Source of the DNA: Chloroflexota bacterium
GTDB taxonomy: Bacteria; Chloroflexota; Dehalococcoidia; Lucifugimonadales; UBA3495
Assembly (NCBI GenBank): GCA_022573285.1
Contig: JACZUF010000010.1
Coordinates: 5,602 to 69,601, forward strand
Direction of reading: 5' to 3'
DNA: 64,000 nucleotides
This document shows positions 2,474-59,171 of the stretch, piece by piece (position 1 is the first letter of the stretch; each line of letters begins with the position of its first letter). The notes below the pieces were generated by a model. That model was not told the origin of the DNA and ran no database searches. It saw nothing but the letters and a program-made list of their open reading frames with translations. Position numbers and translations under genes: made by a program.

Positions 2474-2861
2474 TGAACGTACCTCCTTAGGTCTATGTTT
2501 AAGCATTTGTTAAACCAGAATTTACTTCCATAAACATCGGCTGGTCCACCGGCATTCGGAAGACCTCCGCAGCGGCCCATTGGTTCGGCACATGTTTCAT
2601 GGTGTTGTCTAGTGGATAGCGGTTGGAGCCGCTTTGGGACCGGCGTTCCACCGGTGCCCTGAGTTCATGGCGGCTGGACAACCTGGGCATGCTGAAAGGC
2701 AACATCGGCGTCTAGAATAGCGTCGCCATCTGGTGCAAACCCATAAACGTCATCTTCAGCGTGGCCGTTCTACGGAGCGCAAACTAGGTCTGCCGGCCAA
2801 CATGAAGGTGGTGGGCCTTTACGCCATGGCAAAGCCCCAACTATCATAAGCTTGAATATGC

Positions 2862-2938
2862 GGGTGGTTAGCTCAGTTGGTTAGAGCACCTGCTTTACAC
2901 GCAGGGGGTCACAGGTTCGAGTCCTGTACCGCCCACCA
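2862..2938 (+). tRNA. tRNA-Val (anticodon TAC), CCA encoded
   Basis: Cloverleaf read by eye: acceptor gggtggt/accgccc, D-arm gctc-agttggtt-agag, anticodon stem cctgc/gcagg with loop tttacac, T-arm acagg-ttcgagt-cctgt, then discriminator a and cca. Confidence 0.95.
2890..2938. repeat. 49-bp direct repeat, left copy (3' part of tRNA-Val; attL-like)
   Basis: ctgctttacacgcagggggtcacaggttcgagtcctgtaccgcccacca is identical to 21412-21460. Confidence 0.9.
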
Positions 2939-2960
2939 CTTCAGGCACAAGCCAGGCATG

Positions 2961-2990
2961 GAAGCCGACGTCGCTTTCGGCTTCTTTTTT
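2961..2990 (+). terminator. rho-independent terminator after tRNA-Val
   Basis: Stem gaagccga / tcggcttc with an 8-nt loop, followed by tttttt. Confidence 0.7.
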
Positions 2991-3093
2991 CGTCGAAAAA
3001 GCAATTCCGACCCCCTGCCTTTCGGGTCTTTCGGTTAGGGCCCCAGATGCTTGCCTCTCAAACACTTCTTAAGAATGGAGGCAAGGAACTATC

Positions 3094-3372
3094 ATGGCCA
3101 GTAACCGGAACCTCAGGTGGGAAGAGATCGATAAATCAAAAACCGACCTCTCGGTGTTGATCCAGCACTTCGAGGTCCACAACAAGACCGAAGGGAAATC
3201 GCCTAGGACCGTCGGTTGGTACAACGAGGTTCTGGGTATGTTCATAAAGTGGCTAAGGTCGGTGTTCATTCCAAAGACTGTAGGCGAAAAGAGGGGTGTA
3301 TTCTGGCCGAGGTTTGATCGCGACCAGTTTTCCATCGCGAAGCCTAATCCCATCGAAAACTTCCCGTGCTAA
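3094..3372 (+). pseudogene. tyrosine recombinase/integrase, N-terminal SAM-like domain fragment only
   Basis: The 92-aa ORF LSVLIQHFEVHNKTEGKSPRTVGWYNEVLGMFIKWL resembles the N-terminal core-binding domain of phage-type integrases. No catalytic domain follows. Confidence 0.45.
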
Positions 3373-3512
3373 CTCCCGGCGCTGCTTCTGCATAACTTCG
3401 GATGCTCCCAAAGAGCCGGTAGGTTCCGTAAGAGCTCAGCCGCTCGGTCCAGGTTTGGAGTCGATTGAACCGTTGGCTTAGGTTCCAATGCCCGTCTTTG
3501 ACGCTCTAGTGC

Positions 3513-4149
3513 CTAGTACTCTGCCTTGAACTGTTGATCACCGATCACGTTCCAAATGTGTTGCTTGCGGAGATTTGCTAGGGCAGCATCAATCCTCTTG
3601 ATCTCTAATTTGTGGTCGGGTTCGGGGCCTTCTTTTGAGATTGCCTGATTTACGGCATCCCGCCAACCCTCATCGAGGGTGACGTATCCTAGAACTCGTT
3701 CGGCAAATTCTTGTTCCACATGAGGAGCCGGAAGGGACTGCGGGCGAATGTCACACCTGTGACAACTGTGCATCATGCTTAACGAAATACTTCCATTCTG
3801 GTGGCATCCTACGCCGTGGAACGCCCTTCCGCACCCGTCGCAGGTTGAGACACCAGTTGGGCGGGGAAATACGCTGTTGGCGAAAGGGCGGGCTGGACCG
3901 CCCCGGCGCATTTCTATCTCTACGTGTGCCTTGGCAGAGGGTCCACAACTCTTTAATCTCCCGAGGTACTTCATGGGCTCCGGGCATGACCTCTTCGTCT
4001 GATTGGAGATGAGGCCTAGCCCTCCCTAAGAAATCGCCATCGGACACTTTCTCGGACTGCTTCGTCGATGGCATTGTCTGGTCTGCTGGAAAGCGTATCA
4101 AGTTGCCGGTTAGCATCTTCCCGACACAACAGTCGAGAAGGGTCTCCAT
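3513..4149 (-). pseudogene. large serine recombinase, frameshifted C-terminal fragment (recombinase, zinc-ribbon and coiled-coil region)
   Basis: Two overlapping minus-strand frames. One carries PGAHEVPREIKELWTLCQ (recombinase-domain-like). The other carries CDGCGRAFHGV...CHRC and a C-terminal coiled-coil KRIDAALANLRKQ. The N-terminal resolvase catalytic domain is absent. Confidence 0.5.
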
Positions 4150-4301
4150 GGATCCCGGTGGACAAGCCTCATACCCTGACGATATTATTCCCGCAACACC
4201 GGCCCAGTGATTGAGGGATAATTAATTCTCGCTACCGCAAGCGCCTATCTCAGCATTGTTCGTCTCATTGATAGCCCCATCTATGTAATCGTCAGGTCGT
4301 T

Positions 4302-5723
4302 TTGACGCCGCTACGTCAATCTGTTATGCCAGTCAAAGAAAATCCCGGCCACATCCTCCAACTCACCGACTCAGTTACAACCCGAAAGTGCGCGTTTCGC
4401 CTGGACTTCACTGACGCCGATCTGCCCTGGGAGCGGTTGCTCGAACAATGCCTCAAGAATCCTCCCATCGACCGGCTACTGGAGGAACACCGCATAACCC
4501 CGGAGTCCGCCCAAAGCCTGTCTGCCATTCAGGACTTGGTCTACGTCAGCGACGAACACGGTCGGCTTCATGACATGTTCCCGGGGACTACCGTGAAACA
4601 AGGAGGCCGCACATTAGCCGCCGGGGCGGCCCCGGAGGTGGTTCTTGGGCGTACCGGCGAGATTGACGTAGCGGTGATCGACCTGGAGATAGACCGTTGG
4701 AACGTCGGTTATGGCCGCAATTGGACGGGCTTCAACAGGAGGAGATGGGGGAAGAACGAGTCCACCTATCTCGGTTTTGTTAGGTCTGCGCTGGAACCGG
4801 ACCACAGTCCCTCAGAAGCCGAATCAATCCTTGGGCTAGATTCGGCGGAGGCTAGACTGGTTGTCCTGCGGGCCCTGGCCATGCGAATCTGGGAAGCCGA
4901 CTTTGAGAGCTACTCCCGGTTTACCGGTCAGAAACTCATCTTCAAATCCGGGGACGAAACGGTCCGCAACATTATGGAAGGCGGCGGCGGAATCTGCTCT
5001 GAAAAAGTTCAAGCCTTGAAATTTCTCACCGATAACCTGGGTTACGAATCGGAGTATCTTCTGGCCGGACCCAACGCCCGAAGACCGATCCCCGAAGAGA
5101 AGCTGCGCGAGCTTCTCACTACCTTTGAATTCGGACTTTCCAAACGGTATATGCGTTACTGGCAGCACATGGCGCTCTTGTATCACCTAGATGGCGCCGA
5201 TATCATCGTTGATGCCACCAACGGGAATATACCTTTCATATTCCTGGCGGGGCCCGAGGCCGAACCGATGCTCAACTGCTGGGAAAAGGCTCCGGTATCC
5301 GTGAGAATGTCCTTGCATGAGGAGTCGTTCTATTACCACCGGGTATCCCAAGACATTCCCGAGGACCTGCTCTTTGCGTTGGAGGGTTGGATCCCCGAAT
5401 CCGACTTGATCCAGGTTTTCGAAAACGAACTAGGCCTTATCATTTCGGAGGGGTTCTTCGTCACGCCGATCCCATACCGGGACCGGCAGGGGTTCTTGGA
5501 GCTGGAGCGGCAATACAAAGAAGCCTGCGAGAAGGTTGGCCTGCCGTGCGTAGTCACCGAAAAATGGAGCCTGGATTCCGATATTGGGTCACGTTTTACC
5601 CAGGCGCACCCCTTCGCCAGCCAGCAGATCATGGCGTCCGAGCGGCATTTACTGTCCCGGTACAATGCAAGCGAAGGTGTAGACCATGAAGCCGGTTTGG
5701 TGGTGGTGAGGCTGAGGAACTGA
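4302..5723 (+). CDS. transglutaminase/papain-fold (Cys-His-Asp) protein, function unknown
   Basis: 473-aa ORF with a TTG start at 4302 and an alternative ATG at 4326. GGGGIC(232)SEKVQALKFL, then about 57 aa to RYWQH(289)MALLYH, then about 15 aa to IVD(304)ATNG, matching transglutaminase-core spacing. Confidence 0.7.
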   Translation: MTPLRQSVMPVKENPGHILQLTDSVTTRKCAFRLDFTDADLPWERLLEQCLKNPPIDRLLEEHRITPESAQSLSAIQDLVYVSDEHGRLHDMFPGTTVKQGGRTLAAGAAPEVVLGRTGEIDVAVIDLEIDRWNVGYGRNWTGFNRRRWGKNESTYLGFVRSALEPDHSPSEAESILGLDSAEARLVVLRALAMRIWEADFESYSRFTGQKLIFKSGDETVRNIMEGGGGICSEKVQALKFLTDNLGYESEYLLAGPNARRPIPEEKLRELLTTFEFGLSKRYMRYWQHMALLYHLDGADIIVDATNGNIPFIFLAGPEAEPMLNCWEKAPVSVRMSLHEESFYYHRVSQDIPEDLLFALEGWIPESDLIQVFENELGLIISEGFFVTPIPYRDRQGFLELERQYKEACEKVGLPCVVTEKWSLDSDIGSRFTQAHPFASQQIMASERHLLSRYNASEGVDHEAGLVVVRLRN

Positions 5724-5807
5724 GAAGATGGTCCCACCGAACACCGGCCAGTTGATCAACTTAAGATTGCTGGTTCACCATCGAGGGCGTGCTGAGCAGA
5801 TGACAGC

Positions 5808-6875
5808 ATGTTAAATATGCTTAAAGGACGCATAATTCGCCTCCGGCGCAGGAGGGGGGTAGGCGCCAGTTTTGTATTGGCAGCTCTCCTGGTCAGCATC
5901 GTCGGCAACGCCATGACGTTCTACCTATTCGAGAGAGGCGCCCGTCCGGAGTTATCCGTCGGCGATAGCTTTTGGTACAGTATGATATCCATCACGACGA
6001 TTGGATACGGTGACCTTTCCGCCAACACCATTGGGTCCAGGATCGGGACCATATTTTTTATCACGATGGTGGGCCTCACCGCATTCACCGCCTGGGCCGG
6101 CATCATAATCGGCTGGCTGATCGATCTGCAACACAGGGAGCGGACTGGCATGGGGAGTTTATATGTGAAGGAACATATCTTGATAATCAACTACCCCAAT
6201 GAGGGCCGCGTCCGCCACATAATCGACGAGTTCATGTCGGACCCGGCGCACCGGGAGGACGAGATCGCCATCATCACCGACCAGGTGGAATCACTGACCT
6301 TCTCGCATCCCAACGTCTACTTCGTCCGTGGCTCGCCCCTGGAATTGGAAACCTACGAACGGGCGAGGGCAGCCGAGGCCCAGAGGGCCATCGTTTTGAG
6401 CACGGGTTACGACGACCCGCACAGCGACAGCATCGTTGCGTCGGCCGTTTCCGTGCTGCACCGTTCGAACCCGCGGATCATGGCCACGGCCGAGTGCATC
6501 GATCCCAAGCATGCCGTGCTTTTTGAGCAGATGGACAACGTGTCCCTGGTTTTCCCGCTTCAGATGGCCAACAACCTTCTGGTGCAAGAATCTCAGGACC
6601 CGGGTGTAAGCCTGCTGGCCCAAGTCATCACCAGTAATAAGATGGACGGCACTCTGCTCAGCACCCGCTTAGAAGCGGTGCCGGAGAAGCGGGTAGCCTA
6701 TCCGGACATCGCCAAGCGAATGCTGGACCGCGACATCAACCTGGTGGGAATCGTGCGCAACGGGACCGTGCATCTCCGGTTCACTGAGTTGTTTCCGGTG
6801 CAAGATGATGTGCTGGTCTACATCGCTTCCTCCCGGCTGGAGTGGGAAGCTCTTCAGGAATCGTTGGCTCCCTGA
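5808..6875 (+). CDS. 2-TM potassium channel with C-terminal RCK (TrkA-N/C) domain, MthK-like
   Basis: K+ selectivity filter TTIGYGD lies between two hydrophobic helices. It is followed by an ILIINYP...VRGSPLE Rossmann-like RCK domain. Confidence 0.9.
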   Translation: MLNMLKGRIIRLRRRRGVGASFVLAALLVSIVGNAMTFYLFERGARPELSVGDSFWYSMISITTIGYGDLSANTIGSRIGTIFFITMVGLTAFTAWAGIIIGWLIDLQHRERTGMGSLYVKEHILIINYPNEGRVRHIIDEFMSDPAHREDEIAIITDQVESLTFSHPNVYFVRGSPLELETYERARAAEAQRAIVLSTGYDDPHSDSIVASAVSVLHRSNPRIMATAECIDPKHAVLFEQMDNVSLVFPLQMANNLLVQESQDPGVSLLAQVITSNKMDGTLLSTRLEAVPEKRVAYPDIAKRMLDRDINLVGIVRNGTVHLRFTELFPVQDDVLVYIASSRLEWEALQESLAP

Positions 6876-6948
6876 CCCTTGAGGTAGCCTAGGGATGGCA
6901 CGCAGCCCAAAGATGACCGGCACCAAAGAATGATAGGTAGCTCTTTAG

Positions 6949-9900
6949 ATGGTTAAGATCCCGATATTAGACCGGCTTGAAGGCTTGTCTCAAGCCATGA
7001 ACGCTCGCAGGGGGGCAGACCACCGTTTGGGGGGAAACCGCCTGAAGGAGATCCGGAGGCTCGATGCAGCTTCCTATTCCGATGTCGAACTGCGGGATAC
7101 CATTCATCGGATCGCTGGAGAGCTGGCCCATCGGGACCAACGCGGATCGGGTGACGATAACCTGCCGGCGGTGTTCGCCGTCGTCAACGAAGCCATCAAC
7201 AGACGGCAGGGGGCGTGGCGGTTCTTCGACCCAGCCGCGGACCAGCAAAGCCTTCAGCGGTATCATGCGCTGGCGGACCGCATATCCCACAGCCTGGATT
7301 ATGAGCGGGCCGCGATGGAGTGGGCGGGCAACGAGAGCAGATGCTGGGAGAGCTTCGACCAGGCCGTTAATCCGCTGATGGTCCGCCAAGGATTGGACCC
7401 CGAGGAAAGAATCCTGGTGGGGACGATTCTATTCGTCAGCCAAAGAAGCCAAGCGGAATACACGGCAAGTATCCTTCTCCCCGCCTGCTTTTATCAAACG
7501 CTCCAGGCACATGACAAGGACGGCGCACTGGCGTTTCGGGTGAGCGACGAGCAGATCCAGGCCGGGATTCTGCTGTACCAGGGCAACATCGTGGAGATGA
7601 ACGCCGGCGAGGGCAAAACGATTGCCGCGGTATTCCCTGCCGTCTTGCACGCGGTCCACGGAAGGACCGTTCACGTCATAACCGCCAACGATTACCTGGC
7701 TGGCAGGGACGCCGAGTGGCTGGCCCCCGTCTTCGAATCCCTCGGCCTAAGCGTGAGCGCAGTCCTGGAGGTCATGGACGAATCGGACCGGCGCTTTGCC
7801 TACGGGAAAGACATCGTGTACGGCGCCCTCCGGGAGTTCGGTTTCGACTTCATGCGGGACAACCTCAAGCTGTCTTCTGCCGAAGTCGTCCAACGCCGGT
7901 TGGATGTGGCCATCATCGACGAGGCTGATCACGCGCTAATAGATGAGGCCAATATCCCATTGATAATCGCCGGCGGGTCCGGGGCCGCCCCCAAGATACC
8001 GGCCAAGCTCAGGATAACCATTGAGGATCTAGTTGATCTGCAGCGTGCCGCCGTCTCGGCCTTGGAGCGGGAGTTGGAGCGCCTTCGACCCCGGTCGGAG
8101 GCCTACTTCCAGCTAATAGCCAAGTTGTATCTCGCCGATCCCGATGGCACGGTTTTGCGGCGGGAGTTCACCGCCGATCCCAGATGCTTGAAGCGCGTGC
8201 TTCGGATTTTCGCCGCGTGCCGCGTTGACGACGAATATGACAGCTTGACCGGCGGTCTTTGCTACTGGACCGACGACGATGGCAAGTCCCTATGCTTGAC
8301 CGAGAAAGGCCAAGATTTCGTCGAGTCCCGTCTCGGACCCCTGTTTGAAGACCTGGCCCTGCAGGAGCAGCTAAGCAGTGTCCAGGCGAATTACGACCTT
8401 CCGTTGGCCTTTCGCCGAAAGGAGATTGACAAGCTGAACCGGCAGCTTGCCCGGAGGCAGGACCGGATGCACCAGGTAGTTCGAATGTTGTGGGGCTACG
8501 TTCTACTGAAGAGGGACGTGGATTACTTGGTGCGGGATGACCAGGTTGTGCTGATCGATAAATACACTGGCAGAGGGCGCCCCGATACCCGTTATCACTA
8601 CGGGCTTCAGGCCGCCCTTGAAGTGAAAGAGGGTGTGCCGGTCCAACCTGAACACGAAGTTCTGGGCCGGATATCGGTGCGGGGCTTCGTGTCCCAATAC
8701 AGCAACCTTTCCGGCATGACCGGGACCGCCATGTCTTCCAAGGGCGAGTTTAGACGGGCCTACGGGCTGGATGTCGTAGCCATGCCACCCAGCAAGCCCT
8801 TAAAACGCACCGACCTCGAGCCCAGGATGTATTTCAGCAAGGGTGACAAGCTTCAAGCGATCTTAGAAGAGGTCCGCTTCTGCCACGGAATGGGCAGGCC
8901 GGTGCTGATCGGCACCCACTCCATCGAAGAGTGTGACGCGATCTCACAACTGCTGCGGGATGATGGCATCGAACACAACGTGCTCAACGCCGCCAACGAC
9001 CTGGAAGAGCATCGGATCATCGATGAGGCGGGCCTTTTCGGCTCGGTTACCGTGGCCACCGACATGGCCGGGAGAGGCACTGACATTGTCCTTGAAGCCG
9101 GATCGGACCGCCGGATCGCCGCCAGCTACGTTGCTTTGGTGGGCGAATTGCTGGCCCAGGGAGTTGGCGTCGTGAAGCTCAATTGCCCGGCCAAGGACGC
9201 TGCTGAGGTCTTGCTGTCCGCCATTGAAACGGCGGATCTGGATTGTTCGGTTGCCACAGTCCAGAACGGCGGCAGGACCGATGTTACCGTATCCGCTCAA
9301 GACGAAACCACCCAGGCCCGCACGGTCTATTTGGAATTCGGGCTTGGGCTGTACGTGATCGGGGCAGGAAACAGCGATAACGCGAGAATCGATCGTCAGC
9401 TCAAGGGCCGGAGCGGGAGGCAAGGAGACTTTGGCGCCTCCCGGTTCATCTCGTCTTCGGAAGACGGGCTCCCGAAGTTTGCTGGTGACGCGTCATCCGG
9501 GTTGGCCGGCGCAAGGACCGACTTTGCCGGACGTGCGTTCCGGGAAGGGGAGTCACTGACACGCCACCTCGAGAAACTCCAGAAGAACGCCGAAAAGGAC
9601 GCTGAATCCCGGCGGGCGAGGACCGAAGAATACACCCGGGTTTTCGAGGCGCAATCTTTCACTTACTACCGTGCCCGGAAAGATATCCTCCGCATGGAGA
9701 GCTTCCAACCTTTCCTTTCCCGGTTGGTGGCGGCGAAGGCCGGCCAGCTAGCCCAGAAGTACTTTCCTAATTCGCTGGTCGAGGACTACGAGCGTCAGTT
9801 CACCGGGCTCAGCGAGGAACTGGACCTCGACTACAAGGTTTCTGCTTCAAGTTTACGGGGGCTGGACCTCAACCTGCTGGAAGACGAGATGGCCATTTTG

Positions 9901-10236
9901 ATCGAGGCCAGGCTGGACCAGGCCAGGGAGAGATTTACAGCTGGGGAGTTTGAGAAGCTGGCGACGCTTTTGTATCTGCAAACAAGCGATGAGCTATGGA
10001 GGGACCATATGTCCTACGCCCAGAGCTTGATTCTTTGCACACAACTGTGTGGCAACAATGGGAGGGGCGACCTGGCCGCCTATACCCTGACCAGCTTTGA
10101 ATCCTATGAACACTTTCAATACCGGATCGTGGATTCATTCTTGCCGAAATTGGCTGCTTTCCCCAGTGGATTGACCGGGGGACCGCAGCCTCCGCAATTA
10201 GAGATTTTCGAGGAAGTCATTCAAATTCTAGCGTGA
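6949..10236 (+). CDS. divergent SecA-family ATPase (SecA paralogue), 1095 aa
   Basis: SecA motor motifs are present: MNAGEGKTI (Walker A), VITANDYLAGRDAEW, IIDEADHALIDEANIPLIIAG (Walker B), GLQAALEVKEGV, LSGMTGTA, ATDMAGRGTDI, RIDRQLKGRSGRQGD. It has extra insertions and no Cys-rich C-terminal zinc tail. Confidence 0.9.
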   Translation: MVKIPILDRLEGLSQAMNARRGADHRLGGNRLKEIRRLDAASYSDVELRDTIHRIAGELAHRDQRGSGDDNLPAVFAVVNEAINRRQGAWRFFDPAADQQSLQRYHALADRISHSLDYERAAMEWAGNESRCWESFDQAVNPLMVRQGLDPEERILVGTILFVSQRSQAEYTASILLPACFYQTLQAHDKDGALAFRVSDEQIQAGILLYQGNIVEMNAGEGKTIAAVFPAVLHAVHGRTVHVITANDYLAGRDAEWLAPVFESLGLSVSAVLEVMDESDRRFAYGKDIVYGALREFGFDFMRDNLKLSSAEVVQRRLDVAIIDEADHALIDEANIPLIIAGGSGAAPKIPAKLRITIEDLVDLQRAAVSALERELERLRPRSEAYFQLIAKLYLADPDGTVLRREFTADPRCLKRVLRIFAACRVDDEYDSLTGGLCYWTDDDGKSLCLTEKGQDFVESRLGPLFEDLALQEQLSSVQANYDLPLAFRRKEIDKLNRQLARRQDRMHQVVRMLWGYVLLKRDVDYLVRDDQVVLIDKYTGRGRPDTRYHYGLQAALEVKEGVPVQPEHEVLGRISVRGFVSQYSNLSGMTGTAMSSKGEFRRAYGLDVVAMPPSKPLKRTDLEPRMYFSKGDKLQAILEEVRFCHGMGRPVLIGTHSIEECDAISQLLRDDGIEHNVLNAANDLEEHRIIDEAGLFGSVTVATDMAGRGTDIVLEAGSDRRIAASYVALVGELLAQGVGVVKLNCPAKDAAEVLLSAIETADLDCSVATVQNGGRTDVTVSAQDETTQARTVYLEFGLGLYVIGAGNSDNARIDRQLKGRSGRQGDFGASRFISSSEDGLPKFAGDASSGLAGARTDFAGRAFREGESLTRHLEKLQKNAEKDAESRRARTEEYTRVFEAQSFTYYRARKDILRMESFQPFLSRLVAAKAGQLAQKYFPNSLVEDYERQFTGLSEELDLDYKVSASSLRGLDLNLLEDEMAILIEARLDQARERFTAGEFEKLATLLYLQTSDELWRDHMSYAQSLILCTQLCGNNGRGDLAAYTLTSFESYEHFQYRIVDSFLPKLAAFPSGLTGGPQPPQLEIFEEVIQILA

Positions 10237-10289
10237 ACACCGTAAGGATATTGGATCCGGACGGACTTTTCCGAAAAGAGGTATGAGCC

Positions 10290-11069
10290 ATGGGCAAAAG
10301 AAAGAGAATGGGGATGTCGCTTCTCCTGGGTTCAGGCATGTTAGTAGCCGGTCCGGTGCTGGCCGGTTGCGCTTACGGCGTGACCGCCGACAATTGGGCC
10401 GCCACCGAGGGGGCCATCGGCAGGATTAACATGGAAGCGGTCGAGGAGGCCTTCAAGAAATCCCAGTCTGTCGAGGAATTCGAAAAGCGTTTGAACGAGA
10501 TCTACGAAGGGGACGAGATCGTACTGATCCGGGCCAAGGATGAGGATGGCAAACGGGTGATCGAAGGCTACGAAGATCTGAACAGAAATTTCGAAGTCGA
10601 CCCGGACAAAGACGATCTACTATTCACCATCACCAATGAAGGCGACTCGAACGACCTCCGGGGAAACGGCGCGAACCAACATTACCGGAGCTCCTTCGGC
10701 GGCGGAAATTTCCTCTTCACCTATCTGATCTTCTCGTCTCTGGGACGAGGCGGTTTCGGCTACCACACCCCTCGTTCCCGGGTGCCTCAGATGGAGAGCC
10801 AACGGAATAGTTATCGTAATTCAACGGCCTATGCGGGCGGGCGCACCGGAGGGCAGGTCAAGAGAAACTCAACCTACTACAGCAAGCAGAGAGCCAGCAC
10901 GCAATTGAGCACGGCCAGGCAGAGTTATATCGGGACGCAGAAGACCAGCGGAGCGTTCAGGACCAGCAATACCGGCGTAAGGTCCGGTTTCGGCAAATTT
11001 GGCGGCGGCCGTGGCGGCCTCAGCGGTGGTGGTGGCGGCCAGATCATCATAAGGGGCGGGCGGTGGTAG
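10290..11069 (+). CDS. lipoprotein with acidic globular part and Gly/Arg/Ser/Tyr-rich low-complexity tail
   Basis: Signal peptide with lipobox LLVAGPVLAGC. The C-terminal third is FGGGRGGLSGGGGGQIIIRGGRW-type low complexity. Starts 53 nt after the SecA-like gene. Confidence 0.8.
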   Translation: MGKRKRMGMSLLLGSGMLVAGPVLAGCAYGVTADNWAATEGAIGRINMEAVEEAFKKSQSVEEFEKRLNEIYEGDEIVLIRAKDEDGKRVIEGYEDLNRNFEVDPDKDDLLFTITNEGDSNDLRGNGANQHYRSSFGGGNFLFTYLIFSSLGRGGFGYHTPRSRVPQMESQRNSYRNSTAYAGGRTGGQVKRNSTYYSKQRASTQLSTARQSYIGTQKTSGAFRTSNTGVRSGFGKFGGGRGGLSGGGGGQIIIRGGRW

Positions 11070-11095
11070 CCGGCCCTGTTCGCGGGTATTGAGCC

Positions 11096-12211
11096 ATGGA
11101 TGCTGACTCCGCTAAATACCGGAAAGAGTTGGCCGGTTTTTCCATCGAATACAATCCCGCCAAGGCCTACTACATCAAGCATCGTCCGTTTATCCTCCAG
11201 GTTTCCTTGGGCGACATGGACCTTGAGGACGCATTTTGGGTGAAGCTTAAGCCTGAATACCTGGAGTCCCGCCTCGGCGAGTTCCTAGACGATATCTTCT
11301 CCGGCAACCGCAGGCAGCAGGCAAAGTACCGCTCATGGCTGGACGTTAGGGAGAACCCGGACCTACCTGATATGTATACTGCGTTGCTCGAGATATTCGC
11401 GGAATGGCGCAGCGGGAAATGCACTCTTCATTTCTTCGCCAATCAGGGGCCGGAGATCAAGATGACCGACCGGCTGGACGACCACCTCAGTTTGATGCAG
11501 TCGCCGGAGCACCGGATGGAAGAGACTCCATTATTGGACTTGGTGATCGAGCAGAAGCTTGACGTCCTGGACTATCTGGCCAACTCCGGCTACTTCAAGG
11601 ACAAACAGACGATGATGGAGTTCATGCAGACCAACATGCTGATGTTCTTCCTCGACAAGCATGGATACAAACTTTCGGCAAGTCCAATAGTTGAGACCGA
11701 TAAAGACCTGCTGCCCATCGCCGAAAAGCTCCAGTCGGCGAAGCTAATCGAAACGCCGGACCTATCGGAGACTTTCGCGATAACCGAGGAAGGCAGGCAA
11801 GCCATCAGCAGAACGATCGCCGAGACGGAATCATACATAGACCAATATGACGTCTTCAAAGACGTGTTCTTCGACCCGGACAGCGGAGCGCTTGAGTTTG
11901 AAACCGGCCGCGGCAAGGACCTGAGAGTCCAGATGTATGAGCATGAAGACCTAGACCCGGTGCGGATCGTATTTTTGCTCCGTCTTTACGACTCCACCTT
12001 CGATGAAGTCCAGGCGGCTTGGCGCGATTCCATCCACTCGGAGCAATTTTTCGGGGAGATTTTAAGCCCGATAATGAACGCGGAGCGAACGGACGAAGAT
12101 ATGGTTGAAATGGTCCTCGAAGCCGGATACAACTTCAGCGAGGCCCAGTTCGATACCGCCAAAGAGGCGGAATCGCAGGAGGAATTACTCCGGCGAATAA
12201 GGGAAGAGTGA
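11096..12211 (+). CDS. acidic cytoplasmic protein of unknown function (possible winged-helix segment)
   Basis: 371-aa ORF starting 26 nt after the lipoprotein gene, with no TM segments. The stretch LPIAEKLQSAKLIETPDLSETFAITEEGRQAI looks wHTH-like, but this is weak. Confidence 0.75.
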   Translation: MDADSAKYRKELAGFSIEYNPAKAYYIKHRPFILQVSLGDMDLEDAFWVKLKPEYLESRLGEFLDDIFSGNRRQQAKYRSWLDVRENPDLPDMYTALLEIFAEWRSGKCTLHFFANQGPEIKMTDRLDDHLSLMQSPEHRMEETPLLDLVIEQKLDVLDYLANSGYFKDKQTMMEFMQTNMLMFFLDKHGYKLSASPIVETDKDLLPIAEKLQSAKLIETPDLSETFAITEEGRQAISRTIAETESYIDQYDVFKDVFFDPDSGALEFETGRGKDLRVQMYEHEDLDPVRIVFLLRLYDSTFDEVQAAWRDSIHSEQFFGEILSPIMNAERTDEDMVEMVLEAGYNFSEAQFDTAKEAESQEELLRRIREE

Positions 12212-12227
12212 TGCGGCGCCGGCTTCG

Positions 12228-13115
12228 TCAGATGGCCAAAAACAGTATCATCGCCGAACCGATAACCACCGCGCTTTCGATGAAAGCGACCCCCATGTTG
12301 CGTTCGGCGGCGATGGCGTTTGATGTGGAAACGGTGGGTAGCAGCAGCTTATCGAGCAGCACTCGCATGACGTAAAGCAGCGCGAAACCGATCACTCCAA
12401 AAGTGAGAAAGGCTGCGACTCCTTCGACCCACCCGGCAAAATCGCCAAACACTGCTTTAAACGCCACTAACCCGATGGCGATCAGGTTTCCCCCAAACGC
12501 GATACCCACGGCTGTATTGTTGCTTTCGATCTCGGAATGAATATCGAATGATGTGGTCAACTGGTAGAACAGCGCGAAGAGCACCAACAGCACCAATCCC
12601 ATGCCGAAGAACGCCGCCGCTGTGTCTGGCCCGCCGCCCTCTCCCGACACGGCGCCGGCAATCAGTAGCCCGGTGGCCACATACATGCCGAACTCTGCGG
12701 CCCCGCTCCCGACATTTTGGCCTTCAACCACCTCTTTTTCGATATCGAACCGGTAAAGTATCAGCCGGTTCATAAAGATTCTGACCAAGTTTAGAGCGGC
12801 TATGCCGGCCAAGGAGTAGAGGAACACCCTGAGGACGTCCTCGGCATACTCCCGGTCGAACCCCAGCCCGTCCACTGCGATGGAAGCCAACGGCTGATAC
12901 AACGCGCCGAGAAATACTAGTATTACCCCGATGAAGTAGCCGCTAAGCCGCACCGCGACCGCCAGATTTTTTTTGTTCGCGACTTCATCATCGATCCGGT
13001 AGGGGGTGATGATATCCCTGGCGAGCTTGGCGATCACCAATACGATCAACCCCAGACCAACAAACACCAACCCGCGGGGAATAATTTCCAGCGTATCGAT
13101 AATCGCTTCAATCAT
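12228..13115 (-). CDS. multi-repeat DUF350 (YjfL-like) integral membrane protein
   Basis: 295 aa and highly hydrophobic. It has repeated units of the type ITPYRIDDEVANKKNLAVAVRLSGYFIGVILV, YRFDIEKEVVEGQNVGSGAAEFGMYVATGLLI and FDIHSEIESNNTAVGIAFGGNLIAIGLV. Confidence 0.8.
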   Translation of the reverse strand: MIEAIIDTLEIIPRGLVFVGLGLIVLVIAKLARDIITPYRIDDEVANKKNLAVAVRLSGYFIGVILVFLGALYQPLASIAVDGLGFDREYAEDVLRVFLYSLAGIAALNLVRIFMNRLILYRFDIEKEVVEGQNVGSGAAEFGMYVATGLLIAGAVSGEGGGPDTAAAFFGMGLVLLVLFALFYQLTTSFDIHSEIESNNTAVGIAFGGNLIAIGLVAFKAVFGDFAGWVEGVAAFLTFGVIGFALLYVMRVLLDKLLLPTVSTSNAIAAERNMGVAFIESAVVIGSAMILFLAI

Positions 13116-13469
13116 TGTTTTCCCACTTGGATACCGAACATTCAGCTATTTGAGTCCGAATCATCATCTATTTATCACCGATTCCGATTTTTGACGGAGC
13201 AAATTTATCAGGGATATCGACCTACCTGATAGATTTTGCTATTGTAGTGGGCACGTCGAGACAGGTCAAACAATCGTCTGGTGCTTTCGGTTGGTCCGAC
13301 GGGGAATTCAGCTCCAAGAGATCGTTCACCCGCAAAACACGAAAACGCATAGCCACCCTTGTGGCTCCCCGCTACGGACGCGATTCAGGCTGGATTTTAA
13401 TTGTCAGCAAATCGGAACTTTTGTTTCGGTATAGCAGGAACCATTCAGTATTCACGGAGTTCATCCGAT

Positions 13470-14702
13470 TTGAACAGCAATCCCGGTCAAGCAACTGCTG
13501 ACGAATTGTCGGACCTGGCCCAGGTGTTTGCTCAAATCGGGGCCTCGATAGCAACGCCGGCGTTCGTCTACGAAGACGCGTTCATCAGGTCCCGGTGTGA
13601 ACACCTCAAGCAGATCGCCGAAAAGGCCGGCTGTAGACTCCTTTATTCCGTCAAGGCGTTAACTTTACCGTGGGTGCTGGAGTTGATCGCTCCCCACGTT
13701 CAGGGGTTCTCAGCCAGTTCGTTGTTCGAAGCGATCACGGCTCGAAATGTCCTTCCGGCGGAGGGCACTGTGCATCTAACGACTCCGGGTTTGAGGCCCG
13801 ATGAAGTCAACAAGATCTCAGAGTATTGCGACTACATCTCCTTCAACTCCATATCCCAATGGCTGCGGCACAAAGATGAACTTTCAGACCACATGGAGAT
13901 CGGATTGCGCGTGAACCCAGAAGTTTCCTTTCTGGACGATCCCCGCTACGACCCTTGCCGGGCTTACTCCAAGCTGGGCGCATCCACCCACGCCGTCAAA
14001 GAAGCGTTGGGCCAAAACTCCGCGGCGTCGCACGGCGTCAGCGGAATCCTCATCCACAACAACTGCAACGCTCCAGACCTTCGGGAGGTCATGTTAACGG
14101 TCCAAAAACTGGAGAGTGAACTCGGTCACGTCCTAGATAACTCAAAGTGGATCAACCTGGGCGGCGGATATCTGTTCGACCAAGACAGCACCAATCTGGA
14201 CGCGTTCTACGAAGCTGTGGATTCCCTGAAGTCGAGACACGGCCTGGAGGTGTTCATCGAGCCGGGTTCGGCTTTCGTGCGGGACGCAGGTTTTCTCGTT
14301 TCCACCGTGCTTGATCTGATTGAGGACGGCGACAAAACAATCGCGATTCTGGACACGTCCGTGAACCATTTGCCCGAGTCCTTCGAGTATGAGTGGCGGC
14401 CGGATGTTCTGCTGGATATCGAGGGAGGCCGGTTTCCCTACATAATCGCCGGATCTACTTGTTTGGCGGGTGACGTGTTTGGGGAATATGCCTTCGCGGA
14501 GCCCTTGGAGACCGGGTCCAAGGTGGTGATGTACGGCGTTGGCGCCTACAACCTGGTGAAAGCCCATACATTCAACGGGCTTCTTTTGCCATCGATCTAT
14601 TCCCTGGGCGTCAACGGCGAGGTCACTCTGGTGAAGGGATTCACTTTGGAAGAGCAATCTCAGAGATGGGGGTTTGAAGCCAGTGCGCGTTTCGGAAATT
14701 GA
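13470..14702 (+). CDS. nspC: carboxynorspermidine/carboxyspermidine decarboxylase (NspC-like)
   Basis: Collinear similarity (from memory) to Vibrio NspC: TPAFVYED, FNSISQW, GLRVNPE, IHNNCN, WINLGGGY, IEPGSAFV, GSTCLAGDVFG, AYNLVKAHTFNGLLLPSIY. The start is uncertain: the maximal ORF starts at a TTG at 13401, and the TTG at 13470 has GGAG 10 nt upstream. Confidence 0.8.
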   Translation: MNSNPGQATADELSDLAQVFAQIGASIATPAFVYEDAFIRSRCEHLKQIAEKAGCRLLYSVKALTLPWVLELIAPHVQGFSASSLFEAITARNVLPAEGTVHLTTPGLRPDEVNKISEYCDYISFNSISQWLRHKDELSDHMEIGLRVNPEVSFLDDPRYDPCRAYSKLGASTHAVKEALGQNSAASHGVSGILIHNNCNAPDLREVMLTVQKLESELGHVLDNSKWINLGGGYLFDQDSTNLDAFYEAVDSLKSRHGLEVFIEPGSAFVRDAGFLVSTVLDLIEDGDKTIAILDTSVNHLPESFEYEWRPDVLLDIEGGRFPYIIAGSTCLAGDVFGEYAFAEPLETGSKVVMYGVGAYNLVKAHTFNGLLLPSIYSLGVNGEVTLVKGFTLEEQSQRWGFEASARFGN

Positions 14703-16020
14703 ATTTGAGCTGCCCCTCCCTCCCGGACAAGGCAGCATCCTCGATTGGCTTGCCCGCGGGACCGCGGAGAGACTGCCTGACGGCGAGGAGCTGGTACGCC
14801 TGGTAATCACCGAATCCAACCACGACGTTTACCAGTGCGAGGCCACCACCTTCCAGGCCGCCGGGGACTCCCACCGGATTCCCAGTGGCCTGGCGATGGC
14901 GTTTCGGAAGCGCCTGTCGGAAAACACCGGGCGATTCAACGTCGCCATGCTGATACCCACCGGGATCGGCGCGGCCATCGGTGGCCATGCCGGTGACGCG
15001 ACGCCGGTGGCCCAATTGCTGGCTTCCACCTGCGACACCCTGATCATTCATCCCAACGTGGTGAACGCATCCGATATCAACGAGATGCCGGCGAATGCTC
15101 TGTATGTGGAAGGGAGCGTCCTGTGCCGTTTGTTCATGGGGACAGTCGGGTTACAGCCGGTGCGGTCGAACCGGGTGCTGGTGCTGATTCATCCTCACTC
15201 CGACCGGGTTTTCTCTGACTTGGCGGTCAATGCGGTGAATGCGGCCCGTTCCTCATATGGACTTAATTGCCCGCGAATTATCGAGATGGAGCGTCCGTTG
15301 GTGATGAGCCCCGATTACACCGGCTCCGCCAGGGCCGCGGGCAGCGTTGAGGGTTTCGACCATCTGTTTTATCTGCTGGATAAACACCGCGAAGAATACG
15401 ACGCAGTGGCCATTGCGTCGGTGATCTCGACCCCTCTGCATTACTATAGCGATTATTTCTGGAGTGACGGCAGCATCGTCAACCCATGGGGCGGGGTTGA
15501 ATCGATGCTTACCCATACGATTTCAAGCCTGTACGACCTGCCGTCGGCGCACGCTCCCATGTTGGAATCACAGGATGTTTTGGACATTGAAACCGGCATC
15601 GTCGACCCTCGAATGGCCGCCGAGGTCATCTCGGTTAGTTTCTTGCAGTGTGTGCTAAAGGGCCTTCAAAGAAGCCCCAGAATTATCGTTGACCCGGAGG
15701 CCATGCGAGAGCCAAACGTGCTCACTGCTCGGGATATCTCTTGTCTGGTCATACCCGACCAATGCTTGGGTCTGCCCACGTTCGCCGCGTTGGAACAGGG
15801 GATTCCAGTTATCGCCGTCAAAGAGAACCGAAATCTGATGAAAAACGACCTGACGGCGCTGCCCTGGGCCAAGGGACAACTACACATCGTCGAGAATTAT
15901 TGGGAGGCAGCCGGCGTATTGGGCGCCTTGCGGGCGGGGATCGATCCATTGGCGGCGCGGCGGCCCCTTGGGTCTGTCTCGGTGGAAAAGACCAGAACAG
16001 CTACGTCAGTGACGGAGTAG
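14674..16020 (+). CDS. conserved hypothetical protein (LIPTGIGAAIGGHAGDA motif; possibly DUF3326-like, unverified)
   Basis: 448-aa ORF overlapping the nspC-like stop by 29 nt, with a TTG start. The family assignment is from memory only. Confidence 0.65.
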   Translation: MKPVRVSEIEFELPLPPGQGSILDWLARGTAERLPDGEELVRLVITESNHDVYQCEATTFQAAGDSHRIPSGLAMAFRKRLSENTGRFNVAMLIPTGIGAAIGGHAGDATPVAQLLASTCDTLIIHPNVVNASDINEMPANALYVEGSVLCRLFMGTVGLQPVRSNRVLVLIHPHSDRVFSDLAVNAVNAARSSYGLNCPRIIEMERPLVMSPDYTGSARAAGSVEGFDHLFYLLDKHREEYDAVAIASVISTPLHYYSDYFWSDGSIVNPWGGVESMLTHTISSLYDLPSAHAPMLESQDVLDIETGIVDPRMAAEVISVSFLQCVLKGLQRSPRIIVDPEAMREPNVLTARDISCLVIPDQCLGLPTFAALEQGIPVIAVKENRNLMKNDLTALPWAKGQLHIVENYWEAAGVLGALRAGIDPLAARRPLGSVSVEKTRTATSVTE

Positions 16021-16028
16021 CTTAATCG

Positions 16029-17390
16029 ATGATGGCGACGCGGGAAGAAATTCGGGAACGGCTGGCCAACGACGGCGTTAAATACCTGCTCGCCCAGTTT
16101 GTGGACTTGAACGGCTCCCCCAAAGTGAAGTTGGTGCCCGCGGGCCATCTGGACGATGTGATAGACGACGGAGCCGCGTTCGCCGGAGCCGCTCTGCCAG
16201 GACTGGGACAGGGTCCGCACTCCCATGACATGATGGCCCGGATCGATCTGGACTCTTACACGCTGGTCCCTTGGACCGATGGCATCGCCCGCTTCGCCAG
16301 CGACCTCTTCGTAGACGGCCAGCCGCACATGTTCTGCCCTCGCCAGAACCTAAAACGCGTCTTGTCGCAGGTGCGCCAGCAAGGCTACGTGTTCAATGTC
16401 GGAATCGAACCCGAGCATTATCTGGTCACCAAGCAGAAAGACGGCTCCATTGTAGTGTGGGACCCCAACTGCGTTGACAACCTCCGCAACCCTTGCTACG
16501 ACTTCAAAGGCACTTCAAACGCGATTAACTACCTACGCAAGATGATGGATGCCATGGGCCGGATGGGCTGGGAACCCTACCAGTCCGACCACGAAGACGG
16601 CAATGGCCAATATGAGATCAACTTCGGCTACACGGACGCTTTGACCACGGCCGACCGTTACACCTTTTTCAAGATGATGACGAGCCAATACGCCCAGGAG
16701 TTCGGCGCCATCGCCACTCATATGGCCCAGCCCTTCACCAATCGAGTCGGAAGCGGAGGGCATATTCACTACCACCTGGCGGACGCTGCCACGGGAGAGA
16801 ACCTTTTCCTTGACGAGGAAGACCCTCGAGGGTTGGGCCTGTCGCAGTTGGCCTATCAATTTATCGCTGGGATATTCGCCCACGCGCCGGCCCTGTGCTC
16901 GGTCATGTCGCCAACGATAAATTGCTACAAACGGCTGCAGGTGGAACCAGGCCTGACGGATTCTAGTTTCGAATACGTGTGGACGCCCGCGTTTATCGCG
17001 TACGGTGACAACAATAGGACCCAGATGATCCGCACCCCCGGACCCAGCCACCTTGAAGACCGCAGTATGTCATCCGCCTCCAATCCTTATCTGGCTCTGA
17101 GCGTCTACGTCATGGCCGGCCTGGATGGAATACGAAAAGATCTGGACCCAGGAGAGCCCAATCTGGGCAATCTGTACAGCTTGGGTCTGGAGGAGGTCCG
17201 TCGCCGGGGGATACGGTTATTGCCTCAGACCTTGGACGAATCGCTGGCAGAATTAAAGCAAGACGAACTAGTACAAGAATCTTTGGGCGCCATCTACGAA
17301 GAATTTGTAGCCTTGAAAGAAGCCGAGTTGCGGGAGTACCACCGCCAGGTTACCCGGTGGGAGATCGAGCGATATTTGACGCTCTTCTAG
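16029..17390 (+). CDS. glutamine synthetase family protein (type I fold; gamma-glutamyl-amine/polyamine ligase candidate)
   Basis: 453 aa. The N-terminal beta-grasp VKYLLAQFVDLNGSPKVKLVP and the catalytic-domain motifs NVGIEPEHYL, DHEDGNGQYEINF, GSGGHIHYHL and NNRTQMIRTP are typical of the GlnA/PuuA family. Confidence 0.9.
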   Translation: MMATREEIRERLANDGVKYLLAQFVDLNGSPKVKLVPAGHLDDVIDDGAAFAGAALPGLGQGPHSHDMMARIDLDSYTLVPWTDGIARFASDLFVDGQPHMFCPRQNLKRVLSQVRQQGYVFNVGIEPEHYLVTKQKDGSIVVWDPNCVDNLRNPCYDFKGTSNAINYLRKMMDAMGRMGWEPYQSDHEDGNGQYEINFGYTDALTTADRYTFFKMMTSQYAQEFGAIATHMAQPFTNRVGSGGHIHYHLADAATGENLFLDEEDPRGLGLSQLAYQFIAGIFAHAPALCSVMSPTINCYKRLQVEPGLTDSSFEYVWTPAFIAYGDNNRTQMIRTPGPSHLEDRSMSSASNPYLALSVYVMAGLDGIRKDLDPGEPNLGNLYSLGLEEVRRRGIRLLPQTLDESLAELKQDELVQESLGAIYEEFVALKEAELREYHRQVTRWEIERYLTLF

Positions 17391-17597
17391 TCGGGGTTTT
17401 ATTTCAGGTTTTCGTTCAACCCTCCTGAGTGATGGCCTCTCGAGTAATGGAATGAGGGGACCGGGTTGATTTCTGCAGGATGCATATGCTAAAAATCAAC
17501 CTATGAGCAGTGCCTGACCGGCGCATGGGTCACCACGCGGGAACACCAACGGCCCGGTTAATCAATTCCGGGCCGTTGTCCGTGGGAGAGGTCCGAT

Positions 17598-18225
17598 CTA
17601 TTTGTAGGGGTGGAGTTGGATCTCCTTCAACGCAGGGATCACTTCCTTGCCCAACAACTCAACGGACCGCATGGCCCCTTCATTGCCGTATATCAGGAGA
17701 TATCCGGTTAAGGTTCTCGACCACATATTTCGGCTTCTCTATCAAGCTGTCCGGTGCGCCGACAATGACCACCCGGGCCTCCGTTGCTTCTCGTCGGACA
17801 TTGCCTGTCCCGCGTTGCCGGCGTATACGCCGGTAGGCCGCCAACTCGTGTTCCAGACCGACTTCGACTCTCCCCCATCTCCCCGTCCAGCTCATTGCAA
17901 GGAGATTCGTAACTTGCCGGGCAAACGGAGAACGGACGTCGTTTGCAAATAGTGAACACCCGACCCTCCTCCGTCTCCACCATAAACACGATTCAGACGC
18001 CTCAAGCTCGTTTGAAGTCTGGGGCGTCTGATTTATCAGGGCCACCCCGCTTCCCGCTCGGGTGGTCGCAATTTCGAACAAAGGCCGGAATGCCGGTTTG
18101 GGCCGGATGGCCCGGATCTCGCAGTCAACCGCTGATTTTGCCCATTTCCTCCCCACAGGCCTACAGAAACCCTTGATCGGATGAAAGATTTCCTCAGCCG
18201 ATATTATTCGAGATTCCGAGTCCAT
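17598..18225 (-). pseudogene. luciferase-like monooxygenase (LLM) remnant, frameshifted
   Basis: The minus strand reads ...RVVIVGAPDSLIEKPKYVVENL... in one frame. Another frame reads ...YGNEGAMRSVELLGKEVIPALKEIQLHPYK followed by a stop at 17598-17600. Both resemble LLM C-termini, but there is no continuous ORF. Confidence 0.4.
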
Positions 18226-18383
18226 TTCGCTCTAGATCCGATTACCAGATGGCGATTGTTCATGGTGAATCCGTGAGTTAGCCCACACCGCACTACTTTG
18301 TAAAAGACCTCAGGATCGTACTTGCTATCAAAATAAGGAGGAGTCCGACCATCCCCCATCTCGACGTCAACGAAGTCACATTT

Positions 18384-18464
18384 GATAGCTTAAGGTAGCA
18401 GTTTATCTGCTGATCTAGCGCCAGATTTCTTCGATAACTTAATTTCTGCCAACTTCACTACGAT
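18384..18464. repeat. imperfect direct repeat S1 (partner 19691-19770)
   Basis: tagcttaaggtagcagtttatctgct...agatttcttcgataacttaatttctgccaa versus tagcctaggttcaaaagctatctgct...aggatttctttggtactttaatttccggcaa. Identity is about 65-70% by eye. Confidence 0.5.
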
Positions 18465-18554
18465 TCCATTTTTGTGTCCCTGCGATGAAGATTGAATAGA
18501 CACCTGTACCCTATTAAGGGGTGCCGCTTGCGGTTTTTAATTAGGATTGATCGT

Positions 18555-58194: not shown

Positions 58195-58288
58195 CAGAAC
58201 CCTCCTAACTGAATGACCCGTCATGAATAATAGCAGTCGAAGACTCCCAAGCGTTCCAGACAACATATCGTATAATACCAACGCACAG

Positions 58289-58321: not shown

Positions 58322-58391
58322 TCTGGCCGCGAAACAACGATGGACAGAAGCCCTGATTCGGCAATCAGGATCAAGTGATGAAAGTGCAACA

Positions 58392-59162: not shown

Positions 59163-59171
59163 CGTGAGACT

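Follow-up and report, generated by a model that had tools for sequence, protein, structure and literature searches.

A divergent SecA-family protein encoded with lipoprotein, DUF350 and polyamine genes in a conserved gene cluster of Dehalococcoidia

Operons that link polyamine enzymes to the phage shock protein (PSP) PspA and CesT/Tir include genes for DUF4178, a DUF350 (YjfL) protein and a lipoprotein, and one variant also has a gene for a K+ channel (Ravi et al. 2024, mSystems, PMC11237479). Such operons, including those of the E. coli yjf cluster type, are known from comparative genomics only, and the CesT/Tir-PspA pair is their hallmark (PMC11237479). Here, a gene cluster with many of the same components but with an additional gene for a divergent SecA-family ATPase is described. 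The cluster is located in a stretch of 64,000 nucleotides (hereafter the window) from the genome of a Chloroflexota bacterium of the class Dehalococcoidia (contig JACZUF010000010.1, assembly GCA_022573285.1), and all coordinates given below are positions in the window. Going by the names of homologues of its proteins, the window belongs to SAR202 in this class.

To our knowledge, the SecA paralogues described to date are the SecA2 types and SecA-like domains carried by giant proteins. In the accessory Sec systems of Gram-positives, SecA2 and SecY2 are found with Asp proteins, and mycobacterial SecA2 is found with the chaperone SatS. The giant proteins of Omnitrophota and Actinobacteria include divergent SecA_DEAD and preprotein-binding domains, occur beside a normal SecA, and have been proposed to export their own gene product by means of these domains (bioRxiv 10.1101/2023.11.21.568195; eLife PMC8195603). 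Literature searches for SecA paralogues returned only papers on SecA2 and on these SecA-like domains inside giant proteins. None of the terms SecA, helicase, translocase, transglutaminase and Dehalococcoidia occurs in the text of the PSP survey (PMC11237479), and no experimental characterisation of DUF350, DUF4178 or the yjf genes was found in the literature on them. Thus, the view of the initial annotation, that no described system joins a SecA paralogue with these partners, agrees with the literature searched.

The 1095-aa SecA-like protein has significant Pfam matches for all four domains of canonical SecA, namely the DEAD motor (SecA_DEAD, PF07517, 4e-75), the preprotein cross-linking domain (SecA_PP_bind, PF01043, 3e-15), the second P-loop domain (P-loop_SecA, PF21090, 3e-48) and the scaffold/wing domain (SecA_SW, PF07516, 3e-14). 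The Walker A (GEGKT) and Walker B (DEAD) motifs, initially described as intact, are present in the sequence. These motifs read MNAGEGKT and DEADHALIDEA in the window protein and Mx[AS]GEGKT and DEAD[HQ]ALIDEA across the family, as compared with MxTGEGKT and DEVDSILIDEA in most canonical representatives. Many canonical SecAs also include a SEC-C zinc finger and a C-terminal motif conserved as Y[AG]Q[KR][DN]P, here taken to be the two-helix-finger region, and the SecA-like family has neither. Residues 45-92 of the window protein resemble the N-terminal segment of canonical SecA (FAVVNEAINRRQGAWRFFD; Pfam SecA_DEAD, E 0.17). Within the region encoded by 6949-7530 (residues 1-195), this segment is followed by ~100 extra residues, and the canonical DEAD domain resumes at about residue 195. 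The extra stretch, conserved across the SecA-like family, seems to have been inserted within the first nucleotide-binding domain.

The protein scores below the cut-offs of both SecA equivalog models, with 538 bits against 814 for NF009538 and 519 bits against 800 for TIGR00963, and is likewise under those of the SecA2 models TIGR04221, TIGR04397, TIGR03714 and NF012136 (NCBIfam). The orthologue from SAR202 is named 'hypothetical protein BZY87_10575' at NCBI. In a search of 1.84 billion representative proteins, ~55 clusters (50% identity) aligned over the full length with 540-1720 bits, and canonical SecAs appeared from ~410 bits, the closest being those of Mcinerneyibacteriota and Sumerlaeia. 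Neighbour-joining placed all of the canonical SecAs, 12 of them from Dehalococcoidia, in a single clade and the SecA-like family outside it. The mean identity between the family and canonical SecAs is 30%, as compared with 48% between canonical SecAs of Dehalococcoidia and those of other phyla and 48-68% among the canonical SecAs in the tree set.

The class also has an orthodox SecA. A canonical SecA from a Dehalococcoidales metagenome-assembled genome (MAG; locus L081) is 41-46% identical to canonical SecAs of other phyla (605-734 bits), whereas it matches the SecA-like proteins of the cluster in pieces only, with a sum of ~300 bits. Its identity to the canonical SecAs of Dehalococcoides, Dehalococcoidales and 'Dehalococcoidia bacterium' is 57-67%, and SEC-C (PF02810) was found in 119 of its 120 matches. 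Given the separate clade, the ~30% identity, the failure of the curated thresholds and the presence of orthodox SecAs in the same class, the SecA-like gene is very probably an accessory paralogue.

Further SecA-family matches were found in MAGs of Opitutaceae, Verrucomicrobia and Phycisphaerae (loci L061, L063, L064, L082, L084 and L087), and these have no cluster synteny. They reach only 280-335 bits against canonical SecA, where typical canonical pairs reach ~700, and may represent another divergent SecA paralogue group in the Planctomycetes-Verrucomicrobia-Chlamydiae superphylum.

Scanning the alignment of the SecA-like family over one genome per GTDB species gave ~46 loci in Dehalococcoidia. 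Partners at these loci were counted using tblastn with the window proteins and with markers from relatives; several loci are cut by contig ends, and the counts are lower bounds. The lipoprotein gene lies directly downstream of the SecA-like gene in 45 of the 46 loci, and the gene for the acidic protein, found in 36, always follows that for the lipoprotein. The Cys-His-Asp enzyme is encoded in 40 loci, DUF350 in 37, DUF4178 in 36, the K+ channel in 24, PspA-PspAA in 21 and an AMP-binding enzyme in 15. DUF3326 and the NspC-like decarboxylase occur in 32 loci each and always together. The usual order is the Cys-His-Asp enzyme, the K+ channel where present, the AMP-binding enzyme with a 227-aa protein where present, the SecA-like protein, the lipoprotein and the acidic protein. 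These are followed on the opposite strand by DUF350, DUF4178 and, in some loci, PspA and PspAA, and the DUF3326/decarboxylase pair is found on either side. Homologues of the 473-aa enzyme on long metagenome contigs in ENA had the same neighbours in five of five cases, with identities to the window proteins from 36% to 65%. Complete MAG chromosomes with the cluster include OY761986.2, OZ240240.1, OZ244817.1 and OZ253565.1.

A remote version of the cluster was found in a Chitinispirillaceae MAG of the phylum Fibrobacterota (JBNKZD010000204.1, locus L065, 1-14600), where all genes are on one strand. The order is lipoprotein, acidic-protein homologue, amidohydrolase, AMP-binding enzyme, 472-aa homologue of the Cys-His-Asp enzyme, TrkA-type K+ channel (TrkA_N/TrkA_C), methyltransferase and a 962-aa SecA-like protein, and the latter is directly followed by a CesT/Tir chaperone, PspA and a DnaJ-like protein. 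The homologues of window proteins were detected using tblastn at E 1e-29 to 1e-76. DUF350 and DUF4178 were not found within this locus. The conserved synteny in unrelated genomes that would be expected of a functional system is therefore borne out by 46 species of Dehalococcoidia and one genome of Fibrobacterota, and the cluster is a conserved unit rather than a chance adjacency. The link to the yjf cluster and PspA, initially drawn from DUF350, is seen in the relatives, in 36 and 21 of which DUF4178 and PspA-PspAA, respectively, stand beside the DUF350 gene.

Variation among the loci includes insertion sequence transposases between cluster genes (DDE_3 and rve with HTH_38; L019 15360-16484 and L052 14071-15081). 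In one variant, the SecA-like gene is directly preceded by a tandem universal-stress-protein gene (L017 9067-9960), which fits a role in stress.

The cluster and the PSP-linked operons have in common DUF350, a surface lipoprotein, polyamine enzymes and a ligand-gated K+ channel and, through the related loci, DUF4178 and PspA; the Fibrobacterota version further shares the CesT/Tir-PspA pair. The lipoprotein is likened to the 'Ctha_1186' or DUF1190 lipoproteins by type only. However, the polyamine enzymes described for the PSP-linked operons are of the SpeE-like, AdoMetDC or ATP-grasp (GspS-like) kind, and no SecA-family protein is encoded in them, whereas the cluster has DUF3326 with an NspC-like decarboxylase, an enzyme of the arylamine N-acyltransferase (NAT)/transglutaminase fold, the SecA-like ATPase and a new acidic protein. 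Thus, what is new to this kind of operon is the clade of stand-alone SecA-like proteins, the NAT/transglutaminase-fold enzyme family, the acidic partner of a new fold and the DUF3326 route to a polyamine.

As in the accessory Sec systems, a second SecA motor is encoded beside a candidate low-complexity substrate, candidate modifying enzymes and a candidate cytoplasmic accessory or chaperone protein. However, SecY2, glycosyltransferases and Asp1-3 are absent from the cluster, where the partners are DUF350, DUF4178, PspA and polyamine enzymes, and the SecA-like protein forms a separate clade that the SecA2 models do not recognise. The SecA domains of the giant proteins are fused into chains with multiple transmembrane segments and have no scaffold/wing domain, whereas the cluster protein is stand-alone and keeps SecA_SW.

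All nine open reading frames (ORFs) initially annotated in the cluster were found at their reported positions (Table 1). The first five genes are co-directional and spaced by 84, 73, 53 and 26 nt, as first reported except that the first gap had been given as 85 nt, and the fifth converges on the DUF350 gene with the reported gap of 16 nt between the stops. The true start of the decarboxylase is probably downstream of 13401. No riboswitch was found, Rfam giving only a tRNA in 2000-19000. Promoter-like sites matching at 10 of 12 positions lie upstream of the first gene (4159-4188) and of the DUF350 gene (13269-13241, minus strand), and the frequency of promoter-like and terminator-like sites is at chance level.

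Table 1. Genes of the cluster, with window coordinates and the evidence for each assignment.
Predicted product	Coordinates	Strand	Evidence
Cys-His-Asp enzyme, NAT/transglutaminase (papain-like) superfamily	4326..5723	+	Triad, AlphaFold2 model, Foldseek
K+ channel (TTIGYGD filter) fused to RCK domain	5808..6875	+	Pfam
Divergent SecA-family ATPase, 1095 aa	6949..10236	+	Four SecA Pfam domains
Lipoprotein, 259 aa, polybasic tail	10290..11069	+	Lipobox, conserved motifs
Acidic cytoplasmic protein, 371 aa, pI 4.5, fold family unassigned	11096..12211	+	Homologues, AlphaFold2 model
Membrane protein with eight transmembrane segments, two DUF350 (YjfL-type) repeats	12228..13115	-	PF03994
NspC-like fold-type III pyridoxal phosphate (PLP) decarboxylase	13401..14702	+	TIGR01047 below cut-off, Orn_DAP_Arg_deC
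DUF3326 protein, decarboxylase partner	14674..16020	+	PF11805, 4e-90
Type III glutamine-synthetase-family ligase	16029..17390	+	TIGR03105

No family in Pfam or NCBIfam was matched by the 473-, 259- and 371-aa proteins, and the families of the 371-aa and 473-aa proteins gave no usable match to PDB sequences. The lipoprotein encoded directly after the SecA-like gene has a lipobox, LAGC, and the tail rich in Gly, Arg, Ser and Tyr that was initially reported, which is basic and also rich in Gln. The conserved lipobox is followed by an acidic N-terminal domain of ~100 aa with a near-invariant motif (WAATDGAAGRIN; WAATxGAxGRIN) that can be made out even in the Fibrobacterota homologue. Between this domain and the tail lies a short, conserved hydrophobic segment (NFLFTYLIFSSL; FLFTYLLISS). 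The tail has a mean length of 116 aa with ~19 Lys and Arg against ~2 Asp and Glu, ~8 Gln, and many Ser, Thr, Gly and Tyr. No relatives of the protein were found among plasmids, and relaxing the Pfam threshold to E <= 10 still gave no family. In one sub-clade of Dehalococcoidia (L043, L044, L047, L051, L056 and L058), the SecA-like protein is only 29-33% identical to that of the window and the acidic protein has been lost, and the lipoprotein keeps 52-58% identity. The lipoprotein thus evolves far more slowly than its SecA-like motor.

The 371-aa protein is acidic, with 76 Asp and Glu against 41 Lys and Arg. It had been called an acidic orphan, and while the acidity stands, it is not an orphan; at least 131 clusters of homologues were found, every one of which is named as Chloroflexi, SAR202 or Dehalococcoidia. 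An AlphaFold2 model of pLDDT 89.6 gave no Foldseek match better than E 0.07, with partial resemblances to winged-helix and beta-grasp folds only. Some homologues (P0455, P0461, P0428, P0458, P0465, P0466 and P0469) are ~170 aa longer, at ~540 aa, and P0455 and P0461 carry a tetratricopeptide-type repeat (PF13432), which hints at an adaptor role in protein-protein contacts. The complementary charges of the lipoprotein tail and the acidic protein, and the fixed order of the SecA-like, lipoprotein and acidic-protein genes, suggest that the three products may constitute a triad of motor, substrate and holder.

The first ORF of the cluster opens at a TTG at 4302 and would encode 473 aa. Since its homologues are ~465 aa long, the true start is probably the ATG at 4326, giving a product of 465 aa. 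Alignment of 34 homologues showed residues C224, H281 and D296 to be invariant, and this triad is retained in the Fibrobacterota homologue. The spacing of 15 between His and Asp is presumably that of Salmonella NAT. No Pfam family was matched at E <= 0.01 (Acetyltransf_2 gave E 0.29), and the protein was not assigned to Transglut_core. An AlphaFold2 model built from the same alignment (pLDDT 81, pTM 0.82) had its best Foldseek matches in PDB among NATs (E 4.5e-4, probability 1.0, TM-score ~0.4), followed by the amide synthase GdmF and then by transglutaminase-like cysteine proteases, LapG and transglutaminase 3. The enzymes nearest to it in fold transfer acyl groups to amines by way of a thioester on Cys. 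The protein shares the Cys-His-Asp triad with NATs and transglutaminase-like enzymes (Pfam clan Peptidase_CA), but is ~200 aa longer, has extra N- and C-terminal domains and lies outside the Pfam thresholds. The transglutaminase/papain fold initially proposed therefore holds at the level of the superfamily, although NATs are nearest and transglutaminase-like proteins come second, and the protein is a predicted, supported member of the NAT/transglutaminase superfamily.

Pfam confirmed the K+ channel with a TTIGYGD filter fused to an RCK domain (Ion_trans_2, 1e-12; Slo-like_RCK, 1e-7), and also the DUF350 assignment (PF03994, 5e-50). The DUF350 gene is convergent on the SecA-like operon and in related loci is usually followed by that for the beta-rich protein DUF4178. 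The decarboxylase, initially called a carboxynorspermidine decarboxylase (CANSDC), also matches Orn_DAP_Arg_deC and is an NspC-like enzyme, but its 284 bits do not reach the equivalog cut-off of 409 for TIGR01047. Its conserved partner is the DUF3326 protein, which carries the LIPTGIGAAIGGHAGDA motif, and not carboxynorspermidine dehydrogenase. Elsewhere, PavB (DUF3326) and PavA, which has a CANSDC-like decarboxylase domain, are both reported to be needed for formation of a symmetrical triamine, N-(5-aminopentyl)pentane-1,5-diamine, and this pair yields the precursor of a polyamine toxin (bioRxiv 10.64898/2026.06.12.731819). The cluster has the same pairing of DUF3326 with a CANSDC-like PLP enzyme. 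However, PavA has an extra Rieske domain and is accompanied by the cupin hydroxylase PavC, neither of which is found in the window cluster.

The ligase encoded at the end of the cluster belongs to the glutamine-synthetase family, as first annotated, with 518 bits for TIGR03105 (cut-off 470). However, its gene adjoins the cluster in only one of the 46 related species, the closest relative (L008), and is operonic only there and in the window. Synteny rules it out as a conserved component, and it is a clade-specific neighbour. Hence, the polyamine-making module proposed at the outset is reasonable by way of DUF3326 and the decarboxylase, but not by way of the glutamine-synthetase gene.

Taken with moderate confidence, the cluster is a module for envelope maintenance or the response to envelope stress, belonging to the PspA-linked family with polyamine, DUF350, DUF4178 and lipoprotein genes, that has acquired a dedicated divergent SecA-family ATPase. 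The SecA-like protein retains the ATPase motifs, the preprotein-binding domain and the scaffold/wing domain. In such a module, DUF3326 and the decarboxylase would make a polyamine of the triamine type, and the Cys-His-Asp enzyme would form an amide bond to it through a thioester, in many relatives with the assistance of the AMP-binding (adenylate-forming) enzyme. By this bond the polyamine might be acylated or joined to a protein Gln, one candidate target being the Gln-containing tail of the lipoprotein. The SecA-like motor would spend ATP on threading or inserting the lipoprotein, the tail of which, at ~+17 to +20, would be hard to move against the membrane potential, and may insert the DUF350 protein likewise. 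In the cytoplasm, the acidic protein could hold the basic tail or serve as its adaptor. The RCK-gated K+ channel and PspA-PspAA would buffer the potential and integrity of the membrane during insertion, or else trigger the process under membrane stress. In E. coli, defects in the Sec pathway induce psp, and PspA improves export.

Several points weigh against this assignment. DUF4178 and PspA are absent from the 64-kb window, and the PSP link here rests on the relatives. No SecY-like or Asp gene was found in any locus examined, so that a role as a translocase needs the housekeeping SecYEG or a putative partner such as DUF350. The signal peptide of the lipoprotein is of the ordinary Sec/lipoprotein type and by itself requires no special motor. 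The hydrophobic segment of the lipoprotein has a 19-residue Kyte-Doolittle mean of ~1.0, which is under the classical threshold for a transmembrane helix and ambiguous as a sign of one, so that the tail may lie on either side of the membrane. The TM-scores of the Cys-His-Asp enzyme to NATs are only ~0.4. A canonical secA was looked for on the same long contigs as the cluster and none was found.

A more speculative form of the envelope module is a third kind of accessory SecA system, in which the SecA-like protein and the DUF350 protein, in place of a SecY channel, would move a polycationic cargo into the membrane or across it. The cargo in such a system could conceivably be the polybasic tail of the lipoprotein or a protein with amide-linked polyamine, and PspA and the K+ channel might, again tentatively, offset the electrical and mechanical cost. 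If this were true, the DUF350/DUF4178/polyamine operons, including E. coli yjf and the mycobacterial counterparts, would gain a first concrete mechanism.

The SecA-like protein could instead be a membrane-proximal, non-translocating ATPase for remodelling or signalling, like the AAA+ and CesT/Tir partners of PspA, although this is rather unlikely. In that case the lipoprotein would be a bitopic sensor, and the ATPase would hold its polybasic tail in the cytoplasm and, together with the acidic protein, pass signals of extracytoplasmic stress on to PspA, the K+ channel and polyamine synthesis. The hydrophobic segment followed by a tail with so strong an excess of Lys and Arg agrees with the positive-inside rule, although the segment is short and its hydropathy marginal. 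The absence of Y[AG]Q[KR][DN]P and of the SEC-C tail from the family, and of a SecY-like gene from the cluster, likewise agrees with such a role, and the PSP survey reports recurrent coupling of PspA with ATPase chaperones and surface lipoproteins (PMC11237479). However, retention of the polypeptide-clamping apparatus, i.e. the preprotein cross-linking and scaffold/wing domains, weighs against such a role.

It is improbable that the cluster directs the biosynthesis or export of a small molecule or lipid derived from a polyamine, e.g. an N-acyl polyamine, with the SecA-like gene only loosely connected. DUF3326, the decarboxylase, the AMP-binding enzyme and the NAT-fold enzyme would be the makers, and the membrane proteins would handle the product. 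The nearest folds to the Cys-His-Asp enzyme are indeed those of NAT-family acyl or amide transferases, including natural-product amide synthases; some variants of the cluster also encode methyltransferases and AMP-binding enzymes, and the DUF3326 pair makes a toxin precursor elsewhere. However, 14 of the 46 loci lack the polyamine pair and 31 lack the AMP-binding enzyme, the SecA-like gene is tightest with those for the lipoprotein and the acidic protein and not with the enzymes, and SecA-family motors act on polypeptides.

That the gene encodes the housekeeping SecA, with neighbours kept by chance or lineage history, is very improbable. No canonical secA was found in the same genome as the cluster, and the L081 SecA as seed returned only SecAs of Dehalococcoidales and Dehalococcoides, on contigs other than those of the cluster. 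However, the orthodox SecAs known from the same class form a clade that excludes the cluster protein, every curated SecA threshold failed, and the partner set recurs beside a SecA-like gene in another phylum.

That the cluster is a defence system against phages, or one of the abortive-infection type, on a genomic island at tRNA-Val, as initially suggested, is hardly credible: effectors that depolarise the membrane could in principle be built from a K+ channel, an ATPase and a papain-fold enzyme, but PADLOC gave no families for any of the nine proteins, nothing else supports defence, and the neighbours in relatives are metabolic, housekeeping or stress genes. The cluster proteins also had no meaningful match in PHROGs.

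The island itself is not supported either. The tRNA-Val is at 2862-2938, and 2939-4300 includes ORFs 3094-3372 (plus strand), 3513-3974 and 3751-4149 (both minus strand). The 153-aa product of ORF 3513-3974, between the tRNA and the cluster, aligns with the central part of a large serine-recombinase integrase family (phrog_95, E 0.0016) and, weakly, with Zn_ribbon_recom, and GC content is slightly lower here (~0.55 against ~0.60). However, there is no intact integrase beside the tRNA-Val and no integrase domain by Pfam, the dip in GC is mild, and the flanks are unlike those of the two closest relatives; direct repeats of the tRNA 3'-end were not searched for. The relatives have neither tRNA-Val nor integrase at their loci, and across ~46 species of one class the identities of the components drop together, as in vertical descent. 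By eye, ORF 3094-3372 resembles an N-terminal SAM-like fragment of an integrase, with no profile support. The segment 2939-4300 may be the scar of a lost mobile element with decayed recombinase remnants. In another part of the window, 58000-62000 has a GC content of 0.48-0.51, as compared with ~0.60-0.64 elsewhere, and lies just upstream of tRNA-Leu(caa) (61834-61919). A horizontally acquired island is more plausible there than in the region of the SecA-like cluster.

SecA is among the most studied bacterial motors, and the cluster would add a class of stand-alone SecA-family protein that is fixed within a system of several genes throughout one bacterial class. The class of hosts includes SAR202, which is among the most abundant lineages of the dark ocean, and many Dehalococcoidia from soil. 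The cluster also adds genomic context for DUF3326 as a partner in polyamine synthesis. PSP-linked polyamine/DUF350 operons are widespread and have no known mechanism, and the cluster physically ties a Sec-type motor to PspA, DUF350, DUF4178, polyamine synthesis and K+ flux. As the candidate substrate, the lipoprotein, is encoded together with a candidate chaperone, the putative motor and the predicted modifying enzymes, the mechanism is directly testable.

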